Below, piece by piece: positions 2,344-64,000 of a stretch of 64,000 nucleotides of DNA. The notes beneath the pieces are model-generated. The model ran no database searches. It was given only the letters and a program-made list of their open reading frames with translations, and was not told where the DNA came from. This DNA is from an uncultured Candidatus Saccharibacteria bacterium. GTDB taxonomy: Bacteria; Patescibacteriota; CAZHWT01. The first letter of the stretch is position 1. Each line of letters begins with the position of its first letter. The translations under genes were made by a program, and so were the position numbers. The DNA is taken from contig CAZKPX010000007.1 of NCBI GenBank assembly GCA_964554805.1, forward strand, positions 314-64,313. Reading direction: 5' to 3'.

Positions 2344-3541
2344 TCTGTGGACAGTCATCACCTTCGAATTCGTCAGAACCTTGAAAAAGAAATCATTCTG
2401 GCTGAGCGCCTTGGCTTTTCCGCTATTAATGGCAATTATTTTTGCTGTAGTATTTATTTCTCAAGATAGCGCTGAAAAAGCTACCCAGCGAGCAGCTGAG
2501 CAAAAATTCTCAATCGCCATTTATGATCAGTCACAGCTAATTCAGGCCCAGCTTCTACAACAGTCAGAAATCAGCACCGTCGCCTCGAAAGACCAGGGTT
2601 TAACCAAGGTTAAACAGGCTCAAGTTGAGGCTTTTTTCTATTACCCTGCCGATCCTTCCCAGCAGCCAATTGAGATATATGCCAAAGATGTCGGCCTGAT
2701 TGATAATAACCGTTATCAAGCCGTCGCTCAGCAGTTGCTCAGCTCCAGTGTGGCTCAAAATATTAACTCTCCTGTTCAAGTTGCTATTATGCAAGGCCAA
2801 ACCGTCACCAATTTGACTACTTTTACCGATGGTCAGGCTCAGCCCGGCTTTGAACGGGTGGTGGCTCCAGGCCTATTTCTGATTTTATTCTATGCAGTCA
2901 TTGCCTTGCTAGCCAATCGGATGCTAGCCAGTACCACTGAGGAAAAAGAAAACCGGGTCATCGAAATGATCTTAACCACCGTAGAATCCAAAACGCTCAT
3001 CTTAGGCAAGATATTGGCTATGGTCTTGATCGGAGCAGTCCAGATTGCAGTCATTATCATACCGGTTTTGGCGACAAATTATTTCTTTGGCCAGCAATTA
3101 AACCTGCCCAATCTCAACCTGTCAGATAGCTCAATCTCAACCCAGCAATTTGTTATCGGACTTGCCACCTTAATGCTTGGTTTCTTCCTTATGACTGGTT
3201 GTCTGGTAGCTATTGGAGCAGCAGTGCCTACCGCCAAAGAGGCCAACAACTTTTTTGGCATAGTTATCTTGGCCATGCTTATCCCGCTGTATGCATTGAT
3301 GGCCATTATTTCAGACCCCAACCAACCGCTCGTTCAAATCATGACCTACGTCCCCCTCACCTCACCTGTCACCCTTCTGCTTCGCAATGCTGTCGATAAT
3401 CTGCCTCTTTGGCAGGCACTGATTAGTCTAGCCATCTTAGCCGTATCAAGCGTCGCATCCTTAGTTATCGCTGCCCGAACATTTGGCTACGGCACCCTCG
3501 AGTATAGCCGCAAACTGAGCCTCAGAGAAATATTTCGCTAA
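2336..3541 (+). CDS. ABC-2 type transporter permease
   Basis: Multi-TM protein directly downstream of the ABC ATPase. The ATG at 2336 overlaps the ATPase stop (ATGcaTAA), suggesting translational coupling. The six-frame ORF extends further upstream, but that part overlaps the ATPase coding region. Confidence 0.75.
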   Translation: MHNLWTVITFEFVRTLKKKSFWLSALAFPLLMAIIFAVVFISQDSAEKATQRAAEQKFSIAIYDQSQLIQAQLLQQSEISTVASKDQGLTKVKQAQVEAFFYYPADPSQQPIEIYAKDVGLIDNNRYQAVAQQLLSSSVAQNINSPVQVAIMQGQTVTNLTTFTDGQAQPGFERVVAPGLFLILFYAVIALLANRMLASTTEEKENRVIEMILTTVESKTLILGKILAMVLIGAVQIAVIIIPVLATNYFFGQQLNLPNLNLSDSSISTQQFVIGLATLMLGFFLMTGCLVAIGAAVPTAKEANNFFGIVILAMLIPLYALMAIISDPNQPLVQIMTYVPLTSPVTLLLRNAVDNLPLWQALISLAILAVSSVASLVIAARTFGYGTLEYSRKLSLREIFR

Positions 3542-4814: not shown

Positions 4815-6155
4815 ATGGACAAACCTGTCTTACTCAATCGACTCATTTCCATAGATATTCTGAGGGGATACTTTCTTCTTGTCATCATCATAGATCATTT
4901 TGGTCGATTTCCTAACTTTCTGGAGTGGGTCAGCGGCAGAGGAGCCTTGTGGGTGACCGCCGCTGAAGGATTTTTCTTCGTTTCTGGACTCATGCTGGGC
5001 TTAACAGCGGTCCGCAAGCTAAATCAGCGAGGCTTTTGGCCAACTGCCAAAAAAATGTGGCGGCGCAGTGCATTGCTATACATCCTATCTATCGCAACCA
5101 CCCTAGGTTTTACCTATATTGCTTTTCAACTAGGCTGGGCGCCCAAAGGAGGATTGATCGAGACACAGCATTGGCCAACCATCATTAGCCAAACATTGTC
5201 GATGAGCTATGCCTATGGCTGGGCCGATTTCTTGCCTAGGTATGCTCTCTATATGGCCGTCGCGCCAATCGCAGCCTACCTATTAATTCGTGGATACTGG
5301 TGGGCTGTTGTCTGGATGAGCGGCCTGGTCTGGCTAGCCATCGGTCCGACCAACTTTACGTATGCCTGGCAAATTCTGTTCTTCCTCGGCATGGTATTTG
5401 GCTATTATTTACCCCAAACCAAAGCCTGGGCTTCATCGTGGAGCCAACCAAAACAAACCATGATGTACCGATCGAGTATTGCTCTGTCTGCAGTCCTTCT
5501 GGTAGCTAGTGTGGTTGTTTGTCTTTTCCCCATGATGGTGTATGATTACAGCCGGTTTACTACCCCCATCATCACCTCCTTTAGCACCTTAGCTGAGCGC
5601 GACAATCTAGTTAACTATTTGACTTCCATCAACACAGACTTATCCGGCTGGTTGAGTCATCAATTTATGGGCCCTGGTCGCATTGCCCTATTCCTGCTGT
5701 ATTTTGGAACCGCCTTTGCAGTACTGCAAAGGCATGGTCAAAAGGTTGCTCATGGCTTGGGTTGGCTACTTTTCCCCTTAGGTAAAAATTCACTCCTGAC
5801 CTACATTACTCATGCTTGTGTCTTATTTGCACTTGATATATATGTCCTCCGCCAGCCTGGCTTTAAGTGGAACTTTTTGCATACTATACTAGCCATCGGC
5901 TTGGTCTGGTCAATGGTAGTCATCGTCTCAAACAAACATCGACTATTGCCAGCAGTTAAACAAGCCCTAGTCCAGCTCCCCGCAGCACGACAAGTCCTAG
6001 CCAACCCGGCTGCCTCATTCAAGTACCAGCTATCTACCAGCAGCTCTCTTTTTAGCCATCAAGCAGGGTCAGCCACCAAATCCGTCGCCGTTGCGGTGCC
6101 ATTAATCGCCATCTTTGTCCTGGCCGCCATTCTGACAGTTAGGTCTTTGTTGTAG
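4815..6155 (+). CDS. Integral membrane protein, acyltransferase-3 / OpgC-like
   Basis: Ten or more predicted TM helices. The N-terminal motif LISIDILRGYFLLVIIIDH resembles the first conserved block of family-3 acyltransferases. Confidence 0.45.
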   Translation: MDKPVLLNRLISIDILRGYFLLVIIIDHFGRFPNFLEWVSGRGALWVTAAEGFFFVSGLMLGLTAVRKLNQRGFWPTAKKMWRRSALLYILSIATTLGFTYIAFQLGWAPKGGLIETQHWPTIISQTLSMSYAYGWADFLPRYALYMAVAPIAAYLLIRGYWWAVVWMSGLVWLAIGPTNFTYAWQILFFLGMVFGYYLPQTKAWASSWSQPKQTMMYRSSIALSAVLLVASVVVCLFPMMVYDYSRFTTPIITSFSTLAERDNLVNYLTSINTDLSGWLSHQFMGPGRIALFLLYFGTAFAVLQRHGQKVAHGLGWLLFPLGKNSLLTYITHACVLFALDIYVLRQPGFKWNFLHTILAIGLVWSMVVIVSNKHRLLPAVKQALVQLPAARQVLANPAASFKYQLSTSSSLFSHQAGSATKSVAVAVPLIAIFVLAAILTVRSLL

Positions 6156-6163
6156 AGAGCGCT

Positions 6164-8608
6164 TTGCCATTACAGATAGTTCTGTATAATGATGGTATGA
6201 GCCAAGTCGCGCCACCTATCATCGGACCACAATTGGCTGGACTCACCTCCAAGCAAGCCGCCCAATTGTTGCAAGCAGGCAAAAACAATATTCAAACTAC
6301 TCGATCAGCTCGGCCGTATTCTAGAATTATTCTAGAAAACGTTTTCAGCTTTTTTAACATTCTATTGTTCTCGTCTATTGCTGTAGTGGTGTATGCCGGG
6401 GGGAGTCGAGATGTAATCTTTCCGACAAGTCTGCTGCTATTCAATATCAGCCTGAGTCTTATCCAAGAGATTAAAGCTCGTAAATCGCTCGATAAACTGT
6501 CTATGCTCAGCCAGCACTCGGTAACAGCCAGGCGTGATGGGCACGATCTAGTAATTCCGATTCAGGATATTGTCAGCAACGACCTGGTCGTCATCAGTCC
6601 TGGCCAAACCATTGTCGTTGACGGGCCAGTATTGCTATCCAACAATCTAGAAGTAAATGAGTCATCGTTAACAGGAGAGTCGCATGACATCGCCAAGCGG
6701 GAATCAGACCAGCTAACCTCCGGCTCCTACTGTACGGCCGGATCAGGTATCATGCAGGCCGGCAAAATCGGTCCAGCTAGTTATATAAATCGCATGGCTC
6801 AGTCAGCCAAGATATTTCAACGCCAGCTGACGCCTGTCCAAAAGCGCCTCAACGCCGTACTGCGATATATGATCATCGCCATCGCCATTTTTGCCCCACT
6901 CACCCTTATCTCAGGCATAAACATCAACCTAGGCCTGACCAACTCCATAGAGAATATGATCAGCCTACTAACCAGCTTAGTCCCACAAGGTTTAATTGCT
7001 AGCGTAGCTATCTTGTACACCTATGGCGCTATTCGTATTAGTCGATCGCACACCTTAGTCCAGCGCATCAATGCTGTAGAGTCAATTGGGGCTGTCACGG
7101 TTCTGTGCACCGATAAGACCGGCACCTTAACCGAGAATAAGCTAGCAGTTCATCAGCTGATTCCACTTCACCAAGATACCCCGGAGCAACTCCAGCAACT
7201 TATTGGCAGTTTTGCTGCCTCAGTCTCCACGCCCAATGGCACCACCACTGCCATGGCTGCCTATGCTCCTGCTCAGTCGTGGCATATAGATCACGAGGTA
7301 GCATTCAAGTCACAGCGAAAATGGAGCGGAGTAACTGTCACTCAAAACAGCAAAACCGTCTCCTACATACTCGGAGCTCCTGAAGTAATTCTCAGCAAGC
7401 AATCGCTCCATGATCATCAAGAGATAATTAATCGATTAACCTCCACTGGCTTGAGAGTCATCGCCCTTATTCAATCCAGCCAAGCTCTGTCTTCGACCAA
7501 GCCTCAGTTGCCAACCAAGTCCCAACCAGTGGCTCTTATAGTCCTGGGAGATCAGGTCAGAACAGACGTCCAAAAGACCCTGGCCGATTTTTATCAACTT
7601 GGTATACAAGTTAAGGTTATCTCTGGAGACAATCTAGCTACGGTCCAGGCAATAGCAGCCCAGTCAGGATTGACGGCAGCCTCGGCCTTGACTCAATCTG
7701 ACCTAGAGGTGCTTGACCAAGATCATTTTGACCAAATTGTCAGTAAAACCGACATCTTTGCTCGGATTACCCCTGATATGAAGCAAAAGATAATCGAATC
7801 GCTCAAGAAAGCTGGCGAGCATGTAGCCATGATCGGCGATGGTGTCAACGATGTGCCCGCCCTCAAACAAGCCAATGCCTCAATCGCCATGAATAGCGGT
7901 GCTCAGATTGCCAAAGATGTTGCCGATGTGGTGTTGCTCAATAACGCCTTTTCTACATTACCCAAGGCTATCGCCGAGGGTCGGGACATTTCACAGCGGA
8001 TTTACGCCATTGCCAAGATATTTCTGACCAAAGCTATCTACCTCATGATCCTATTCGTTCTGGCTGGCTTTGCGAGCATTCCGTTTCCGATCGATCTGCG
8101 CCAAACCACCTTGCTGGGCTTCGTCATAACAGGCTTGCCAATCGCCTGTATCGCTATCAAGATCATTGATGTGTCCAAGCCAAAAGACCCTGCCAAAGAT
8201 TTTCTTATTTACACCATTCTGGGTGGCGTTATCGGCGGCTTGGCCCTGGCCTACCTAAGTATCGTTACCTTTTCTGTCTTCAATCAGCCCATCGAGGTCA
8301 GCAAAACTATGATTACCATCTTTGCCATCATGTACAGCAGCTGTATTCTATGGCAAGTAAGTGGCATTACAATTTGGGATTTTTTATTAGTCCGGCGAAC
8401 AACACAAATCTTCTTGCTCTGCACGCTAACAGTCATTGCCATCGGCGTACCAGCTCTGTGGTTTCCAAGCGTCTTCCATCTGGTGCCGCTTGGTTTTGCC
8501 AGACTGCTATTCTTGGCAGGTCTAGCCTTATTGTGCGCCGTATTGTTGCAGTACTTCACCGACAAACTATCCCAGAACAGTTTTTTGGCAAAGCTGCATC
8601 AAAAGTAG
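6164..8608 (+). CDS. P-type cation-transporting ATPase (HAD superfamily, P2-type-like)
   Basis: Phosphorylation motif CTDKTGTLTEN, hinge MIGDGVNDVPALKQANASIAM, and TM segments on both sides. The start could instead be the internal Met at about 6197. Confidence 0.9.
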   Translation: MPLQIVLYNDGMSQVAPPIIGPQLAGLTSKQAAQLLQAGKNNIQTTRSARPYSRIILENVFSFFNILLFSSIAVVVYAGGSRDVIFPTSLLLFNISLSLIQEIKARKSLDKLSMLSQHSVTARRDGHDLVIPIQDIVSNDLVVISPGQTIVVDGPVLLSNNLEVNESSLTGESHDIAKRESDQLTSGSYCTAGSGIMQAGKIGPASYINRMAQSAKIFQRQLTPVQKRLNAVLRYMIIAIAIFAPLTLISGININLGLTNSIENMISLLTSLVPQGLIASVAILYTYGAIRISRSHTLVQRINAVESIGAVTVLCTDKTGTLTENKLAVHQLIPLHQDTPEQLQQLIGSFAASVSTPNGTTTAMAAYAPAQSWHIDHEVAFKSQRKWSGVTVTQNSKTVSYILGAPEVILSKQSLHDHQEIINRLTSTGLRVIALIQSSQALSSTKPQLPTKSQPVALIVLGDQVRTDVQKTLADFYQLGIQVKVISGDNLATVQAIAAQSGLTAASALTQSDLEVLDQDHFDQIVSKTDIFARITPDMKQKIIESLKKAGEHVAMIGDGVNDVPALKQANASIAMNSGAQIAKDVADVVLLNNAFSTLPKAIAEGRDISQRIYAIAKIFLTKAIYLMILFVLAGFASIPFPIDLRQTTLLGFVITGLPIACIAIKIIDVSKPKDPAKDFLIYTILGGVIGGLALAYLSIVTFSVFNQPIEVSKTMITIFAIMYSSCILWQVSGITIWDFLLVRRTTQIFLLCTLTVIAIGVPALWFPSVFHLVPLGFARLLFLAGLALLCAVLLQYFTDKLSQNSFLAKLHQK

Positions 8609-9266: not shown

Positions 9267-10445
9267 GTGACCTCAGCATCTTCCAAGCCCTCCACCATTA
9301 CCATATCTCGCCAGCAAGCTGTTAACTTTTTGCTCAGACACCATGGCCTCAATCAAGCTCCTTCGGTATCAAGCTGGCAAACAATTGATCAAGTCTTCCA
9401 GCATCTGCGGGCAATTCAGTTTGATCCGCTTAAGCCATGTGGCAATAATGTCGACCTAGTCCTCCAGTCGCGATTGCGGGATATCCATCCGGGCGACTAT
9501 GCCAACTGGCTTTATCAGCGTCGACAAGGAGTAGAGTACTTTGACAAAGTCTTATGCCTGCTACCAATTGAAGACTTGCCATATACCTACGCCAAGCGTT
9601 TACAAATTGCCCAGAATCCTCGACTCAAACAGTTTGTCGATCGACATAGTTCAGAGATGGTTGCCATAATACAACGCATCGACCAAACCGGCCCTATCTC
9701 ATCGCAACATATAATTGATGACCGGATTATTGATTGGTCGTGGAGTCAAGCTAGATGGGGCAGAGCGGCTCTTGAGGCACTATGGGAAACCGGCCAAGTA
9801 GTTGTTTCGTATCGAAAACAGGGTCGCAAATATTACGATTTACCAGCCAAAGTTTACGGCCAGGCGTATAATTCTCTGGGTTCAGCCGTTATCGATCATG
9901 GTCATATCCTGCGCCGACTTCAATCAACAGGCTTTCTGCCTGCTTCAGGTGCAGGTACGGGCTGGCTTGGCCTAACTCCCGGCCCACTTAAGCAGCAGGC
10001 CATCAAACAGGCGGTGCAATCTGGTCAAGCCCAACTGATTACCATCGAAGGTTTAGCCAAGCCATTCATTATCCAGACCAAGCATCTGGATCAGCTGCAA
10101 AACTCACCAAATCCCCAACAATCTCTTCAATTCATCGCCCCCTTAGATAATTTCATCTGGGATAGACTGTCAATCAAAGCTTTATTCAAATTTGATTATA
10201 AATGGGAAGTCTATACACCAGCTCTACAGCGACGTTTTGGGTATTATGCCCTTCCCATGCTGTATGGCTCTCAATTAATCGGACGCATCGAGCCTGTCTT
10301 CAAGGAGGGTCAACTAATCATCAACAACAAGTGGCTAGAGCAGGGAGTGGTCTGGGATAAGCATCTGCGGGCAGCCTATCAGCAGGCTGTCGAGCAATTT
10401 GCAGCGTATCTTCAGACTCAAGTCATCATTGATCGCTCTCAGTAG
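9267..10445 (+). CDS. Winged-helix DNA-binding protein, YcaQ/AlkZ-like (DUF1006) candidate
   Basis: About 390 aa soluble protein with a QFDPL motif and overall YcaQ-like composition. Weak call by motif only. Confidence 0.45.
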   Translation: MTSASSKPSTITISRQQAVNFLLRHHGLNQAPSVSSWQTIDQVFQHLRAIQFDPLKPCGNNVDLVLQSRLRDIHPGDYANWLYQRRQGVEYFDKVLCLLPIEDLPYTYAKRLQIAQNPRLKQFVDRHSSEMVAIIQRIDQTGPISSQHIIDDRIIDWSWSQARWGRAALEALWETGQVVVSYRKQGRKYYDLPAKVYGQAYNSLGSAVIDHGHILRRLQSTGFLPASGAGTGWLGLTPGPLKQQAIKQAVQSGQAQLITIEGLAKPFIIQTKHLDQLQNSPNPQQSLQFIAPLDNFIWDRLSIKALFKFDYKWEVYTPALQRRFGYYALPMLYGSQLIGRIEPVFKEGQLIINNKWLEQGVVWDKHLRAAYQQAVEQFAAYLQTQVIIDRSQ

Positions 10446-12759: not shown

Positions 12760-13971
12760 ATGGCGGATACAAGAATTGTTATCGTAGGCGGCGGATTTGC
12801 GGGCGTAAAAGCCGCTCGACAATTAGCCAACCGGTCTGGATTATCTGTAACCCTAGTCAGCAATAAGGACTACTTTTGCTACTATCCAACCCTATATCAT
12901 TCAGCCACTGGGCATCCGGGGTCTGAATCATCCATCCCACTAGCAGAAATTTTTAAAGGCACGAATGTCAATCTAATTATCGATACAGTCACCGAGCTTC
13001 ACAGTCGCAGCAAAACAGTAGTCACCCAATCAGCGCAAAAGATCGCTTTTGACGAACTTATTTTGGCCCTGGGAGTAGTGACAAGCTATTTTGGTATCGC
13101 TGGACTAGAGGAATATTCGTATGGTGTCAAAAGTATTGATCAGCTTCTTGAACTAAAGAATCATTTCCATCAATTGATGGTCGATGAGCATCAGCCGGAC
13201 ACAAGCTATTTAGTCGTTGGAGCTGGTCCAACCGGTGTCGAACTATCTGCCGCTATGGGGGCTTACCTCAAGCAGGTAGCCAGGCACTACAAGCTACGCA
13301 AGACTCGTATTAATATCTGCCTTATTGAAGCTGCCCCAAGGGTGTTACCTCGATCATCAGAGAGAGCGTCCAAGTTAGTTACTCGACGCCTACGTCAGCT
13401 TGGCGTCAAGGTTATGACAAACCAAAAAGTCGAAGGCAGTACCGCGGAGTCATTGACGGTAAGTGGCCAGAAAATACCGAGCCAGACAGTTATTTGGACT
13501 GCCGGTGTCACCAACCACCCCTTCTTCAAAGATCACCCCAATGACTTTTCATTAAATGAGAGAGGCAAGGTCGTCGTCGATAAGCATCTTTTAGCTGCTC
13601 CGCATATCTATGTTATTGGCGACAATGCTGCCACCCCGTTTAGTGGTCTGGCTCAGATTGCCGTTCACGATGGATCATTTGTTGCCGACCACATTCTCCG
13701 TCTAGCTGCTGGCCAGCAACCCGTAGAGTACCATAGCCAAGCTCCAACCACCGTTGTTCCAGTGGGGCACAATTGGGCGATTGTTGAAATGGGCAAAATA
13801 AGCTTTGGTGGGTTGGCTGGACATTTGTTGCGTCGAGCCGCAGACTTGGTAGGCTACTGGGATATCCTGCCCGCCTCAACAGCTCTCAAATTGTGGTTGG
13901 CTAGACATGATCATCAGGAAGACTATCTGGCAGTCTCCAAACATAGCAAGTCGACAGTTGCCGTTAAGTAA
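12760..13971 (+). CDS. Type II NADH dehydrogenase (NDH-2) / FAD-dependent pyridine nucleotide-disulfide oxidoreductase
   Basis: N-terminal Rossmann motif IVIVGGGFAGVKAA and a second dinucleotide-binding motif VVGAGPTGVE. About 400 aa. Confidence 0.75.
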   Translation: MADTRIVIVGGGFAGVKAARQLANRSGLSVTLVSNKDYFCYYPTLYHSATGHPGSESSIPLAEIFKGTNVNLIIDTVTELHSRSKTVVTQSAQKIAFDELILALGVVTSYFGIAGLEEYSYGVKSIDQLLELKNHFHQLMVDEHQPDTSYLVVGAGPTGVELSAAMGAYLKQVARHYKLRKTRINICLIEAAPRVLPRSSERASKLVTRRLRQLGVKVMTNQKVEGSTAESLTVSGQKIPSQTVIWTAGVTNHPFFKDHPNDFSLNERGKVVVDKHLLAAPHIYVIGDNAATPFSGLAQIAVHDGSFVADHILRLAAGQQPVEYHSQAPTTVVPVGHNWAIVEMGKISFGGLAGHLLRRAADLVGYWDILPASTALKLWLARHDHQEDYLAVSKHSKSTVAVK

Positions 13972-40005: not shown

Positions 40006-41689
40006 CTGTCTCTCTTCCTCGCTTAAGAGTTCGAAAATGACCGACTTTGCTAGGCATTCTCAAGCTCTCAAATCCAGGATCACTCGTTTTGTCGTCTCTT
40101 AGTAACTCGCAAGTCGCGACGACATCGTTGTGTTCCATTGTCTTCTCAGTGCTCAGGTGAGCTTTTGCATAGTAACTCAGCACCCCAAAATCTGTCAACC
40201 CCTCAAAAGTATCAAAATATTATTGTCATAACAAGCAAAACAATTCACAGCAAAAACGCGAAAGTGCCCGGTTGAAATATCCAACCGGGCTACTCTCTCC
40301 TTTGATTCTGCGCTCCTTCTTGTAAGCTATGGCCAGATCTGCGTTCAATCTAACGGTAGCTCAAAAGCATATGTACTTAGGGTGCATCTGCTGGCTTTTC
40401 ACCAACGTATGACACGATAATGCTGCCATCAATGTAGTAATTAGTGGCACCAGAAACTGCTTCTGGGCCAGGCTCGCGAGTAGCCTTGCCACTTTGCCAC
40501 CAGTGAACAAACCTCTGCCATATGTTGGCAACCAAAAAACTCATGAGAATCCCCCTCTCAGTTTTTCGTGGAATAAATGATGAAATGTCGGATCCAGCAA
40601 TCCAATCAGTAGTGAAGTTTTGCACTACTCATCACCAACAAGCCTGGTTGCTTGTTAAACATATACTAAAACAATAGTTTTTGGCTGTCAAGTCAACCAA
40701 ATGTAATTATATTGATTTTTATGATGGTAATAGGAAAAATTGCCGATTATGTTCAAAGTAGCTATTAAAAGTTGGCAGCTGGCTGGAGATATTCCTCCAG
40801 CCAGCCAGTGCTGACAGCGCCTAGTTGCCGTATTGCGGCCGACCAAGCGGCTCCGACCCGCACTTGCCGCCAGGGCTGATGCGATTGAGGCGGGTGTGGG
40901 TTTCCTCCCTCACTCGGCAGTTTTTGACTGCCTGCTGACGGAAGAACATACTCCTGGTGGGCTTTGTCACCTCTTTGGTGTCAGCCGCGATTCTGGAAGC
41001 CTGGTCTCCGATAACTCCAAAAAACTCATCCGGTCTTGCCACGTCTCGCCTCCGTTGGCGTTTTGGGGCACAATTGCCCCTCTCTGGTCCATCTCTCCAT
41101 TGCAACCCATGGCTGCGGATAGGCCGTCGGCCATTGTACCAAACCATTACTTTACAGGCAAGCAAAAGAGCCCTACCAACCAAACACTTCCGGAAGTAAG
41201 CTTCAAAGTTCAAATCAGGGGCAGATTGACATCTCTGGGGTTGTTTATTTGAGTAGCAATGCAGTAATGTCCATGCGAGTTTGCTCAGGATTTGAGGAAG
41301 TGAGCCGTATTTCTTGTGTCGTGCTGTTTCTCCGAGCAATCAGCCGAATATGGCCATCCGGTGCTATGTACTGGATTTTAATAGTCAGTTTTTCGGGACC
41401 ACGACTGCCTCGAACCGAAGTAATAACTCCCGGCATGATAGTTTGTACTTCAAGCAGGGCCTCAATCGGCTCCAGGGCGGCAATTAAGTTTTCAATAGGG
41501 TGGTGTTTCAGGACAATCTTGCCATACTTCCCACCTCGATGTTGATGAACAGGCATGGAGGTATTATAACGTAAAACGCAAAAGGCAAAAGTCAAAACTG
41601 AAACGAAAAGCTCAAAAGCACTTCTAGGCATAGTTTCAAGTTTCAAAGTATAGCTGTGAGCTTTTAATGTTAAGTTTTGAGTTATCCTC

Positions 41690-58794: not shown

Positions 58795-61159
<2,365 letters not shown>

Positions 61160-61162
<3 letters not shown>

Positions 61163-61420
61163 CCTCACGTCAAACCAACTTTCCATCTACGCATCAGCAA
61201 TCCGGAACGGGTATTCTTTGATGGCAACGCCTATAGTCTGTCATCAAAAAATAACTCCGGCCCTTTCGACATTCTCCCTGATCACGCTCAATTTATATCG
61301 CTCCTCAATCAGGCCGAAGTATCTGTCCATCAAGAAGACGACAAAACCCAAACCTACGCCATCAACCGCGGTCTCATATCAGCCAAGGGCAATATTGTTA
61401 GGGTGTTTGTAGACATCTAG
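61160..61420 (+). CDS. atpC: F-type ATP synthase subunit epsilon
   Basis: 86 aa; the epsilon-like beta-sandwich N-terminus (RISNPERVFFDGNAYSL) follows beta directly; AAGGAG RBS. Confidence 0.75.
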
Positions 61421-61498
61421 TATTGGTAAACTGAGAACAGAGAGCGGAAAGCGGAATAATTATGTTTGCTTGTTGACTATGGCATTACAATATAAGTT

Positions 61499-61870
61499 AT
61501 GCAGCAGTCAAAGGCTTCATACGAAAAGCTAATTGTATGGCAAAGATCAATAGCTCTTACCGTAAGGGTTTATAAACTAACTTCTAGTTTTCCCGACGAA
61601 GAAAAGTATGCATTAAAGAATCAAATACAGAGAGCTGCTGTATCTATAGCAAGCAATATAGCCGAGGGCTATGGTAGAAATAGCACTAAAGAATTTTCAA
61701 GATTTTTACTAATTGCAAACGGGTCAGCAGCCGAATTAGCCACACAATTAGTTGTAGTTAAGTCTATTGGCTTATTGTCATCTGATGAGTGTGATCATGT
61801 GTTAACAGAAATTAACAGCATTAAGGCAATGATATTTAGTCTAGTTAAAAAATTAAAAGCTACTAGTTAA
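61499..61870 (+). CDS. Four-helix-bundle protein (TIGR02436 / 23S rRNA intervening-sequence protein / Avd-like)
   Basis: About 120 aa with YEKLIVWQRS...ALTVRVYKLTSSFP...KNQIQRAAVSIASNIAEGYGR...LLIANGSAAELATQL, the canonical four-helix-bundle family pattern. Flanked by 11-bp direct repeats TATAAGTTATG (61491-61501 and 61929-61939). Confidence 0.8.
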   Translation: MQQSKASYEKLIVWQRSIALTVRVYKLTSSFPDEEKYALKNQIQRAAVSIASNIAEGYGRNSTKEFSRFLLIANGSAAELATQLVVVKSIGLLSSDECDHVLTEINSIKAMIFSLVKKLKATS

Positions 61871-61934
61871 ATTTAGCCAACAACCCTCTGCTCCCCGCTT
61901 ACTGCTCGCCGCTTTCCAATTTTTGACTTATAAG

Positions 61935-62939
61935 TTATGAGTTATGAGTTTTTGAAGATCCCGTCAGCCTCTTTAATCGATAGTACTTTCGAGACAGCAA
62001 AAGTCCCACCACTACCACTGCTATTACTCCTACCACCACTGCAGCTTGCCATGGGAATGCCCAAAAGCTAGCCTGAGTCTTAATCGAATAATTATTGCTA
62101 CCAAAGACGAGATTCAACTCGGCTTGATAGGGGCCAATGATCAGATTGCGTTGCCACTCTGAAGCAAACTGTCGTTGACTATTCGGCAAAACAGCTCGAT
62201 CCTCAACCGGGATCTTGGCTATTTCTCGGCCAAATTGACTGATAGTAATAGTTCCCTTGGGTCGCACATGAACATTGCCGGTATTGCTAAAAATAAACTG
62301 AAATGGCACCGGCCCTTTATCCAAAAATGATGGAACGCTAAAGCCGCACACCACCGCCGTACACCGACCATCGCCGCTATCACCCAGCAACTGACCTGCC
62401 TCAATAATATCTCCGCTAACCGTAAAGTAGAGCAGAGACACCATCCGTGACGTCACCACTACCTTGGAATCACGAGAACTATTCATATCTGGCTGACTAA
62501 TCTGCTCAAACATCACGCTGGCATATTTGCCACCCGGCTCAGCTTGAGGCGGAACAATATATTGGACTGTCACCGTAGCACTATCATCAGCCGGAATAAG
62601 CAAGTTGCTAGTCGACAAATGCACCCATTCCGCCGCCGCGTAACTCATACTATTATCATCAGCAAAAGTCAGCTCGCCATTAGTTCCCTTGGCTGAAAAG
62701 TTGCGAACATACACCCTAACCGCCTGCGCCTCACCGCTCTTATTAAATAAAGAAATATCAAAATTCCCCTGATCCCCCGGATCAACCTTAATCTCTTTGA
62801 GGGCAGGGGTAATTTGAAAGGTCGTAGACTGGGCAATGGCTGGAGCCGTCACAGCCAGTATTGCAGCAGAGGTTAGAACAAATATACTTAGCGTTATTAA
62901 TAATGGACTACCTTTTAAATGGGGAAGTGCGCGGAGCAT
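61935..62939 (-). CDS. Secreted hypothetical protein with C-terminal membrane anchor
   Basis: Signal peptide (LLITLSIFVLTSAAILAVTAPAIA), a beta-rich body, and a C-terminal hydrophobic helix plus basic tail (VVVGLLLSRKYYRLKRL). Sits between the two four-helix-bundle genes. Confidence 0.5.
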   Translation of the reverse strand: MLRALPHLKGSPLLITLSIFVLTSAAILAVTAPAIAQSTTFQITPALKEIKVDPGDQGNFDISLFNKSGEAQAVRVYVRNFSAKGTNGELTFADDNSMSYAAAEWVHLSTSNLLIPADDSATVTVQYIVPPQAEPGGKYASVMFEQISQPDMNSSRDSKVVVTSRMVSLLYFTVSGDIIEAGQLLGDSGDGRCTAVVCGFSVPSFLDKGPVPFQFIFSNTGNVHVRPKGTITISQFGREIAKIPVEDRAVLPNSQRQFASEWQRNLIIGPYQAELNLVFGSNNYSIKTQASFWAFPWQAAVVVGVIAVVVVGLLLSRKYYRLKRLTGSSKTHNS

Positions 62940-62978
62940 ACTTGGTATTATAGGGGAGAGTGGAGATATAAATCAAAA

Positions 62979-63012
62979 GGCAAAAGGCAAAGGGCAAAAA
63001 TTAAAGTGAAAA
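62979..63012. repeat. Left arm of the perfect 34-bp inverted repeat flanking the second four-helix-bundle gene
   Basis: GGCAAAAGGCAAAGGGCAAAAATTAAAGTGAAAA; its reverse complement is at 63469-63502. Confidence 0.9.
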
Positions 63013-63093
63013 TTAAAAAGTTTCTCACTTAACCCCCGCATAAGCTATGCTTGGCTGTTGACGTTATTATGACTTTATTGTTATATACTCTAT

Positions 63094-63453
63094 ATGCAAA
63101 ATGCGCAGAGGGATGACCTGAAAAACCGAGCTTATCGATTTAGTTTGGCTTTGATCCAGATGATTAGTATAGCGAACAAAGGTATGTCGAATGAAATTAT
63201 TTGTAGACAGTTACTGCGATCGGGAACGAGCATTGGTGCTAATCTGGTGGAAGCTCGAGCATCAACATCTCGCCTTGAATATAAAAAGTTTCATGAGATA
63301 GCACTAAAGAGTGCCAACGAAACAATCTACCGGTTAGATCTATTAAGAGATTCAAACAACAGAGCGCCAAGTACTATTGATACTCTAAGAAACGAAGTAG
63401 ATCAGCTGTCCAGGATGATTGGCTCCGGAGTTATAAAACTTAAGTCTAAATAA
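63094..63453 (+). CDS. Four-helix-bundle protein (TIGR02436 / IVS-protein / Avd-like), second copy
   Basis: AYRFSLALIQMISIANKG...QLLRSGTSIGANLVEARAS...FHEIALKSANETIYRLDLL, the family pattern. Flanked by a 34-bp perfect inverted repeat. Confidence 0.8.
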   Translation: MQNAQRDDLKNRAYRFSLALIQMISIANKGMSNEIICRQLLRSGTSIGANLVEARASTSRLEYKKFHEIALKSANETIYRLDLLRDSNNRAPSTIDTLRNEVDQLSRMIGSGVIKLKSK

Positions 63454-63468
63454 GACCCAGCTTTAAAT

Positions 63469-63502
63469 TTTTCACTTTAATTTTTGCCCTTTGCCTTTTG
63501 CC
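63469..63502. repeat. Right arm of the 34-bp inverted repeat
   Basis: TTTTCACTTTAATTTTTGCCCTTTGCCTTTTGCC, the exact reverse complement of 62979-63012. Confidence 0.9.
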
Positions 63503-63917
63503 CTCTAACTTTAACAGTTCAAAAACAACACCGTTTCATCCTCCCCTCGCAACAGCATAAACGCACATTTAACCTATTGACATAATCATCCAACCATTGC
63601 ATCATGGAACAAGCAGGCATTATGTTTGCTAATTATTCAGTATCATTTGAGCTGCTCCATAGCTTCAGAAGATTATTGAATCAAGTCGAAAGTGAGGTGG
63701 TAGCAAGACAGAACATAATTTACTTTATGCTAGTAGGCGCTAGATTGCGCCTGGTTTCCAGCGGTACTGGAGCCTGCCTTATTCGGCATCTAAAGTTACC
63801 ATCAAAATTCGCAATAAAGCAGGCGTAACCAAGCGCCTATTCGTTAGAAAGACCGTATTTAAACGGCAAATTATTAGAAACTCATCGGCTTCGTCCGATA
63901 GAAAGAGGAAATTAGAT

Positions 63918-64000
63918 ATGCATATATCTTCTGCCCACAAAAGTAGCCTGGCAAAAGTTGCTCGTATAGCAACTGCTGGCGCCATGGTAGTCGGTTCTTT
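63918..64000 (+). CDS. 5' end of an ORF running off the window (unknown product)
   Basis: AAAGAGGAAA RBS then ATG at 63918; MHISSAHKSSLAKVARIATAGAMVVGS...; partial. Confidence 0.3.
   Translation, partial: MHISSAHKSSLAKVARIATAGAMVVGS

Follow-up and report, generated by a model that had tools for sequence, protein, structure and literature searches.

Four-helix-bundle genes between inverted heptamer arrays in a "Ca. Saccharibacteria" contig are probable cargo of mobile intervening-sequence-type cassettes outside rRNA

Organization of the locus

The window analyzed here is a stretch of 64,000 nt from contig CAZKPX010000007.1 of an uncultured "Ca. Saccharibacteria" bacterium. Close to its end, after atpC, lie two genes for small four-helix-bundle proteins, designated p1 and p2, with a gene for a secreted protein between them. 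Each of the two genes is bracketed by inverted arrays of tandem heptamers (arms), and the unit of arm, open reading frame (ORF), and arm is referred to below as cassette 1 (p1) or cassette 2 (p2). The features of the locus are as follows.

61431..61458, + strand: left arm of cassette 1, four tandem heptamers CTGAGAA CAGAGAG CGGAAAG CGGAATA (CRGARAG type)
61499..61870, + strand: gene p1, 123 aa, four-helix-bundle protein, PF05635/TIGR02436
61884..61918, + strand: right arm of cassette 1, five tandem heptamers CCCTCTG CTCCCCG CTTACTG CTCGCCG CTTTCCA
61935..62939, − strand: secreted-protein gene, 334 aa, C-terminally anchored; host gene, in neither cassette
62970..63020, + strand: left arm of cassette 2, TAA followed by heptamers ATCAAAA GGCAAAA GGCAAAG GGCAAAA ATTAAAG TGAAAAT TAAAAAG
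63058..63093, + strand: promoter-like sequence, TTGACG-17 nt-TTATAT (or TATATA), with the ATG 6–7 nt further
63094..63453, + strand: gene p2, 119 aa, four-helix-bundle protein, PF05635/TIGR02436, subfamily found across the Candidate Phyla Radiation (CPR)
63461..63511, + strand: right arm of cassette 2, heptamers of (TTTTGNN) type, complement of the left arm

A profile search placed both proteins in PF05635, with E-values of 1.2e-38 for p1 and 1e-17 for p2. The matches extended over the whole domain and exceeded the curated cut-offs: p1 scored 132 bits and p2 64.7 bits against PF05635 (cut-off 33.8), and 132 and 73.6 bits, respectively, against TIGR02436 (cut-off 24). The assignment of the two genes to the Avd/IVS-protein-like four-helix bundles, proposed in a preliminary description of this DNA, was thus borne out. 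The two proteins, the only family copies within the 64 kb, share only 27% identity. The nearest solved structure is 2GSC (XCC0516, pentamer-forming) for p1 and 2RLD for the p2 subfamily. Relatives of p1 at 50–60% identity are spread over Bacteroidota, Firmicutes, Acidobacteriota, and CPR.

The protein encoded between the cassettes has a signal-like N-terminal segment and a hydrophobic C-terminal anchor in its sequence, which agrees with the earlier description of an oppositely oriented, secreted and membrane-anchored protein. A homologue weakly matched a WxL-interacting peptidoglycan-binding domain. The gene is preceded by a promoter-like TTGATT-18-TATAAT-7-ATG (62976–62947), the -35 box of which overlaps the outermost heptamer of the cassette 2 left arm.

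Inverted arms of the two cassettes

All four arms of the two cassettes are heptamer arrays. In cassette 2, positions 62979–63012 are the exact reverse complement of 63469–63502 (34/34), so that the perfect 34-bp inverted repeat reported previously was confirmed. With its flanks, the repeat comprises 62970–63020 and 63461–63511 (51 nt, 86%) and is by far the longest among the widely spaced inverted repeats of the window. Folding of the 62950–63530 transcript, a check that had been proposed, gave a structure closed by the 34-bp stem, which encloses the whole p2 gene (minimum free energy (MFE) −158 kcal/mol, z −4.8). Two independent short-read Logan contigs of the same organism (L001 and L002; L numbers denote the fetched comparison contigs) end inside the left arm, at about window position 63008; the inverted repeat breaks de Bruijn assemblies.

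The cassette of a related genome, L098, can be aligned with cassette 2 from end to end, and the core TGCTTGG.TGTTGACGT near the promoter-like sequence is kept in it. The sequence and this alignment suggest that transcription of cassette 2 starts from a promoter of its own between the arms and yields a leaderless mRNA. The proposed internal cassette promoters were not flagged in a consensus promoter scan. A -10 box 6–7 nt ahead of an ATG, without a Shine-Dalgarno sequence, was observed at 62947–62976 (− strand) and 63058–63096 (+ strand) of the window and at about 6250–6290 of another relative, L009, and this spacing and the lack of a Shine-Dalgarno sequence suggest leaderless mRNAs.

The left arm of cassette 1 starts 11 nt past the atpC stop codon (61418–61420), and the stem predicted by folding extends outward to 61422. 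The heptamers of the right arm complement the CRGNRAG units of the left one; Tandem Repeats Finder (TRF) reported a period-14 array within it (61888–61914). In both the MFE and the centroid fold, the left arm pairs with 61884–61921. The stem is imperfect, with an arm duplex energy of −36.6 kcal/mol.

These inverted arms were overlooked in the preliminary description, where the gene was reported to lie between 11-bp direct repeats resembling a target duplication. The repeat TATAAGTTATG does occur twice (61491–61501 and 61929–61939). However, the same 2.7 kb holds five exact direct repeats of 11–12 nt, so that the pair is at chance level. In addition, the first copy is located inside cassette 1, at the p1 ATG and internal to the left arm, and the second falls within a (TGAGTTA)x3.9 array, located at the 3' end of the neighboring secreted-protein gene. 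With one copy inside the cassette and the other in a host array, the pair cannot be a target-site duplication.

Arms as a family property

Homologues of p2 were collected from 80 metagenome loci, all CPR-like, at 48–62% identity to p2. After removal of redundancy, 58 homologues were compared with 219 other ORFs from the same loci, and a flanking inverted repeat was counted when its score was at least 30. Such a repeat was found around 79% of the p2 homologues and 4% of the control ORFs; the control ORFs above the threshold were mostly other cassettes or genes for RAYT/IS200-like transposases with repetitive extragenic palindromic (REP) sequences.

An ATG-anchored alignment yielded the arm consensus TAA-(NNCAAAA)x4-WTACAAK-2 units, and the left arm of cassette 2 has the same layout. 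The upstream arm of the family spans the start codon and roughly the first 10 codons, thereby encoding the conserved N-terminus MQNYNSKFKS. Autocorrelation at lag 7 was 0.47–0.49 in the arms versus 0.26–0.30 in coding or distal sequence. The homologues were found in dozens of unrelated operons, where the host neighbors were co-oriented with them upstream in 41 of 56 cases and downstream in 47 of 52. As the median gaps to these neighbors are 26 nt upstream and 54 nt downstream, the arms usually fill the whole intergenic spacer.

Inverted arms were also present around other cargo, each with units of its own. Other four-helix-bundle subfamilies in the fetched loci have units of the ATAACAT, AAATAAT, and CCAAA types. 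A gene for a GxxExxY/PDDEXK_3 protein (L088, 1636–2016) lies within a near-perfect 51-nt inverted repeat of CGAAT units, and a further PDDEXK_3 gene with inverted arms was found at L097 850–1227. In Maribacter, a p1 relative with (TAGATNN) arms is located between trpG and trpD, and in a 4.9-Mb Bacteroidota genome, a p1-type gene with its own heptamer arms lies between cysD and cysN; a PDDEXK_3 gene close by in that genome is likewise flanked by inverted arms. Judging by these arrays, the choice of repeat unit follows the cargo subfamily.

Cassettes as discrete units at a polymorphic locus

Pairs of cassettes with 81–89% nucleotide identity occur in unrelated flanks. In the pairs L024/L040 and L043/L083, homology starts and stops exactly at the outer ends of the arms (TAAKTCAAAA...TTTTGAMTTA). 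Terminal inverted repeats with sharp outer ends and a family-wide consensus are therefore common to many copies. The flanks of these two pairs show no duplication, and no empty site was found among them.

Versions without an ORF were also identified. Arm-arm hairpins of ~110 nt are present in L042 (directly before atpD), L028, and L081, with z values of −5.2, −4.3, and −2.75, respectively. In the window itself, a regex scan detected one more element, between a dinB-like gene and the next small gene.

41557..41689, − strand: ORF-less degenerate hairpin, CAAAA-type heptamers GTCAAAA GGCAAAA CGCAAAA CGTAAAA on the + strand

Its fold has an energy of −30.7 kcal/mol (z −2.35), and the element is probably what is left of a p2-type cassette without its cargo.

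A comparison of the region 61935–62939 in relatives had been proposed, and it was carried out for four related genomes: the window, L098, L099, and L009, the last being the one relative returned by a scan of genome contigs and the only GTDB relative found. Together with the gene content of the window, this relative indicates a CPR bacterium of Saccharibacteria-like type. The orthologue of the secreted-protein gene is present in all three relatives, and the locus around it is polymorphic. Site 1 denotes the position between atpC and the secreted-protein gene, and site 2 the other side of that gene.

Window: site 1, p1 cassette; site 2, p2 cassette; gene convergent with atpC
L098 (AtpC 89% identical): site 1, one p2-type cassette; site 2, none; gene co-directional with atpC
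L099: site 1, none; site 2, none; gene co-directional with atpC
L009: site 1, REP-like hairpin; site 2, GxxExxY/PDDEXK_3 gene; gene convergent with atpC

Thus, two, one, no, and a different cassette are present at this locus in the four related genomes. The stretch of L009 syntenic to cassette 2 (5770–6351) contains a 134-aa gene of the GxxExxY/PD-(D/E)XK type (PF13366, TIGR04256) bracketed by GCGAAT-type units that make up a 59-nt inverted repeat (duplex −77 kcal/mol), with its own promoter-like TTGATT-17-TATAAG-6-ATG.

The p2-type cassette adjoins the 5' end of the secreted-protein gene both in the window and in L098 (gene at 1098–2078). The orientation of the gene differs between the two while the cassette keeps its position, and this indicates an inversion whose end points lie at or close to the arms of the cassette. 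In the alignment of the two cassettes, the right arms are well conserved and the left arms diverge, and the left arm of the window is a perfect copy of its own right arm in the 34-bp core. From these sequences, the perfect 34 bp most likely arose when the right arm recently converted the left one, and it is not a rule of the family; the conversion is perhaps linked to the inversion separating these genomes.

Several other features of this locus were noted in the relatives. In L009, a hairpin element with the arm core AAGAGTCCAAATGCCAAGG occurs at 7361–7477, 7775–7889, 9972–10191, and 12981–13090; it is REP-like, resembling the REP doublet hairpins known as REPINs, and is located in several spacers of the atp operon, including that corresponding to the cassette 1 site. 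The same genome has a MazE/MazF pair (2671–3271) as accessory genes of the locus. In L099, a gene with a CdiA_C-like toxin domain (2135–2515) follows the secreted-protein gene (1047–2090).

We also considered whether p1 and p2 could be ordinary resident genes without cassette identity, the repeats being terminators or a product of the tendency of this genome toward 7-nt repeats. Period-7 arrays are indeed common across the window (9 exact arrays versus 0.1 expected), including the interior of atpD, and L047 has CAAAA arrays within the coding sequence of a host gene. However, p2 homologues from many different CPR genomes share one arm consensus, the enrichment in inverted repeats is 79% versus 4%, homology breaks exactly at the arm ends, and the cargo is swapped at a syntenic site. 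This explanation is therefore considered very improbable.

Relation to rRNA intervening sequences and other elements

The organization of the cassettes was compared with that of the intervening sequences (IVSs) of 23S rRNA. The IVS of Coxiella burnetii, 428–444 nt long, is inserted in helix 45 and has terminal inverted repeats forming a 28-bp stem; three to four tandem heptamers GACAGAT, in a strain-variable number, immediately precede the ATG of the S23p gene, and RNase III cleaves at the start of the first heptamer (PMC4990558). The IVSs of Leptospira are similar to that of Coxiella, and ORF-less IVSs are known in enterobacteria (PMC4990558).

The cassettes resemble these elements in size (about 430–540 nt), in the terminal inverted repeats, which pair into a long stem around the element, and in the S23p/PF05635 ORF with tandem heptamers of the Coxiella type directly before its start at the 5' end. 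They also share a sporadic distribution suggesting horizontal transfer and the existence of both ORF-bearing and ORF-less versions, the latter as in Salmonella, Yersinia, and Campylobacter. The position within rRNA is the one structural feature of IVSs that the cassettes lack. In contrast to IVSs, which are inserted in helix 25 or 45 of 23S or 16S rRNA, the cassettes lie between protein-coding genes: cassette 1 after atpC, and cassette 2 between the secreted-protein gene and a conserved non-coding region. Furthermore, the cassettes carry, or may carry, their own promoters, and cutting by RNase III is known for IVSs only. The 64-kb window contains no rRNA (Rfam gave no match at the gathering threshold), and no tRNA was found in it.

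Taken together, we consider it likely that p1 and p2 are the cargo of dispensable, mobile cassettes of IVS type located outside rRNA, with processing by RNase III and the mechanism of mobility inferred. The notion of mobilized or escaped IVS-like cassettes in the preliminary description was thus retained and extended by the heptamer arms, the family-wide arm-ORF-arm unit, and the polymorphic locus. Its 11-bp target duplication and its alternative, a degenerate arrangement of Avd and target gene, were dropped.

That alternative would make the locus a remnant or part of a diversity-generating retroelement (DGR), with Avd-like accessory proteins beside a variable secreted target. Among protein families, PF05635 is the most frequent neighbor of DGR reverse transcriptases (PMC10053308), the Avd proteins belong to the same fold superfamily of pentamer-forming four-helix bundles, p1 weakly matched bAvd-type models (PF22296, E 6e-6; phrog_3206, E 1e-8), and a secreted protein is indeed encoded between p1 and p2. 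However, no reverse transcriptase was detected among 30 of the largest ORFs of the window (all at least 214 aa), and the longest direct repeat in 61300–64000 was 16 nt, which leaves no pair of template and variable repeats (about 100–150 nt expected); there is no target gene either. The Avd models remained below their cut-offs, with 27.1 against 40 bits for PF22296 (p1; no match for p2) and 22.9 against 80 for NF033474. In addition, the secreted protein keeps its place in L099 and L009 without a four-helix-bundle neighbor, and the homologues of p2 are dispersed among dozens of unrelated operons. A DGR remnant is thus largely refuted and, as the least probable of the explanations considered, excluded for practical purposes.

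Several other systems show partial likeness. The arrangement of one small gene flanked by inverted copies of a short repeat, with cargo-less hairpin doublets of the same repeat scattered in intergenic spacers, recalls REPINs and their REP-associated tyrosine transposases (RAYTs). Unlike in that system, the cargo here is a PF05635 four-helix-bundle protein or a GxxExxY nuclease and not an HUH/Y1 transposase, and the arms consist of 5–7 tandem units (about 50 nt) and not of a single REP palindrome. Genes for RAYT/IS200-like Y1 transposases with perfect REP-type palindromes were observed in L045 (2761–3393) and L080 (4575–5159), on contigs that also contain four-helix-bundle cassettes. Free-standing homing endonuclease genes of phages are likewise small selfish genes wedged between conserved genes and polymorphic in their presence, and the alternative cassette cargo is a protein of PD-(D/E)XK nuclease fold; however, those genes have no inverted arms. 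Miniature inverted-repeat transposable elements (MITEs) lack an ORF, and their ends are those of a known transposase; neither homing genes nor MITEs were demonstrated here. An integron gene cassette was considered and rejected, given the arms on both sides, the single dispersed copies, and the absence of an integrase among the ORFs scanned.

Possible processing and movement of the cassettes

On the reading of p1 and p2 as cassette cargo, each gene would belong to a discrete arm-ORF-arm unit of about 450–540 bp that moves or is exchanged as a whole, with both arms, and is gained, lost, or replaced at a given locus. The arms would pair in the transcript to form a long stem that RNase III could cut, by analogy with the IVSs of Coxiella and Leptospira, and the cut would free the cassette RNA from the host transcript, leaving the neighboring messages intact. 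Such release would explain why most members of the family are tolerated exactly between the stop and start codons of operons, and it is this placement, together with the homologous rRNA elements, that points to processing by RNase III. Read-through from host genes is weak or lacking where the two copies of the window are located, one behind the last atp gene and the other between divergent promoters. It is our guess that the encoded four-helix-bundle pentamer binds its own repeat arrays. A sequence-specific binder, possibly this pentamer, would fit the conservation of five of the seven bases in each unit and the difference in units between cargo subfamilies.

A number of results weigh against this reading, in particular against its RNA part. 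Within the p2 family, the arms of the same locus were no more complementary to each other than arms of different loci, as judged by the alignment score (37 versus 36), the duplex energy (−28.8 versus −28.9 kcal/mol), and the share of Watson-Crick pairs at 16 same-register loci (73.8 versus 74.3%). The complementarity of about 74% is inherent in the conserved arm consensus. The family showed no sense-strand excess or strand bias of G-U-type mismatches, only 2–3 positions of the central unit hinted at covariation, and the typical stems were weak, with a median of −29 kcal/mol versus −24 kcal/mol for coding-sequence controls. Since pairing within a locus is no better than pairing across loci, selection on RNA pairing has no independent sequence support; these alignments show selection on the arm sequence and its inverted layout but do not point to pairing specifically. 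A block-permutation test for the RNA stem seemed positive and was discarded, as the window used had been picked to maximize the observed value. Moreover, the analysis revealed neither a target duplication nor an enzyme of mobility, nor an empty site resolved to the nucleotide, and a promoter of cassette 1 itself is not convincing. Six conserved rRNA motifs had no exact match in any of the loci searched (the 80 loci of the p2 query and others fetched by then), so that these loci do not connect the cassettes of this lineage with insertion into rRNA.

The same observations bear on an explanation at the DNA level, in which the cassettes are MITE-like elements, elements bounded by terminal inverted repeats, or REPIN-like hairpins. 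Their movement would be due to the cargo protein itself or to a transposase from another place in the genome, and any RNA stem would be incidental. The conservation of the arm sequence and not of pairing across the p2 family agrees with it, as do the sharp ends of the cassettes, the ORF-less derivatives, the two CPR contigs with RAYT/IS200-like Y1 genes and REP palindromes, and the recurrence of the REP-like hairpin in atp spacers of L009. However, no transposase with ends matching the arms was found, nor any target duplication, and the palindromes flanking the RAYT genes of L045 and L080 are unlike the arms. Within one genome, the arm units differ by cargo subfamily, and the action of a single enzyme in trans would not account for this. 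The strong co-orientation with host genes and the exact stop-to-start placement point to a constraint at the level of the transcript, and for the homologous rRNA IVS, processing at the RNA level has been demonstrated (PMC4990558). We therefore regard purely DNA-level elements as unlikely; the two explanations are compatible in part.

Further searches were made for related or strain-level variants. The Logan contigs matching p1, AtpC, and the secreted protein were the same three short ones and contained no strain-level empty site, and an exact look-up of p2 matched no contig. Viral contigs scanned with the p2 alignment and with the GxxExxY protein of L009 yielded no relatives. PADLOC models of defense systems did not match p1, p2, the GxxExxY protein, or the secreted protein.

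Other features of the window and comparison loci

A conserved non-coding stretch follows cassette 2 (63577–63850; L098, 2150–2430; L099, 2750–3208; L009, about 5290–5700). In the window, it contains a promoter-like TTGACA-17-CATCAT and a conserved inverted repeat (63734–63757/63816–63839), and it precedes an ORF starting at 63919; a 74-aa ORF within the stretch is not conserved. An Rfam search of 63480–64000 with E-values up to 1 gave no match. The stretch is a candidate for a small RNA or a long structured leader.

Upstream of the cassettes, a 57-nt tandem duplication (61043–61099 and 61111–61167, 75% identity) carries AAAGGAGAATAAGTAATGC, the ribosome-binding site and start of atpC, which is thereby duplicated at the end of atpD.

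Seven is the dominant period of tandem repeats in the window: the exact arrays counted above, all of at least 17 nt and with the expectation taken from shuffles, outnumber those of period 6 or 9. Among the TRF entries, 22 of 54 in the window and 8 of 24 in L009 had period 7, several of them within coding regions. The ATP synthase beta subunit (58798–61092) has 764 aa, with long extensions of low complexity at both the N and the C terminus. The extensions are encoded by three direct repeats of 56–84 nt (58850–58945, 60434–60547, and 60737–60865), which are full of period-7 arrays CCAGTCG, CACCAGT, and GCGACGA. Its core (residues 33–522) is 78% identical to that of L009, where the AtpD ORF of 688 aa was matched only over the core.

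In L047, in-frame arrays of CAAAA-type heptamers (1558–1585 and 1947–1974) encode QKSKVKSQ-like segments of a 409-aa ORF, which from its sequence looks like a glycosyltransferase; the frame of these arrays indicates that repeat arrays can end up within host coding sequence. A gene called just before a cassette in L005 extends into the upstream arm. Cassette arms break short-read assemblies and may be misread as coding sequence. The repeat-encoded extensions of AtpD may be another case of such misreading.

Implications for PF05635 and GxxExxY families

The data support the existence of a widespread cassette type, an IVS-type element outside rRNA, of which no earlier description was found; in the literature on the PF05635/TIGR02436 and GxxExxY/PF13366/TIGR04256 families and inverted repeats, free-standing cassettes were not found described. 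A wider interpretation, which we hold as possible though doubtful, is that four-helix-bundle pentamers and GxxExxY proteins are the active proteins of widespread minimal mobile cassettes, each subfamily recognizing its own repeat (CAAAA heptamers in the p2 subfamily, CGAAT in the GxxExxY genes of CPR, and other units in other subfamilies). The rRNA IVSs would then be the subset that landed in rRNA helices, and the genes annotated as "four helix bundle protein" in bacterial operons, which number tens of thousands, would be further copies.

The origin and mobility of rRNA IVSs have been a question since about 1990, and the role of the S23p ORF since the description of ORF-containing IVSs a few years later. 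In genomes of Bacteroidota, Cyanobacteria, and CPR, the PF05635 and GxxExxY families count among the most frequent small genes still lacking an explanation. If the IVS architecture, the sharp mobile boundaries, and the swappable cargo hold true, the cutting of mRNAs by RNase III at the arms, the binding of the pentamer to its own heptamers, and the agent that moves the unit would become directly testable.

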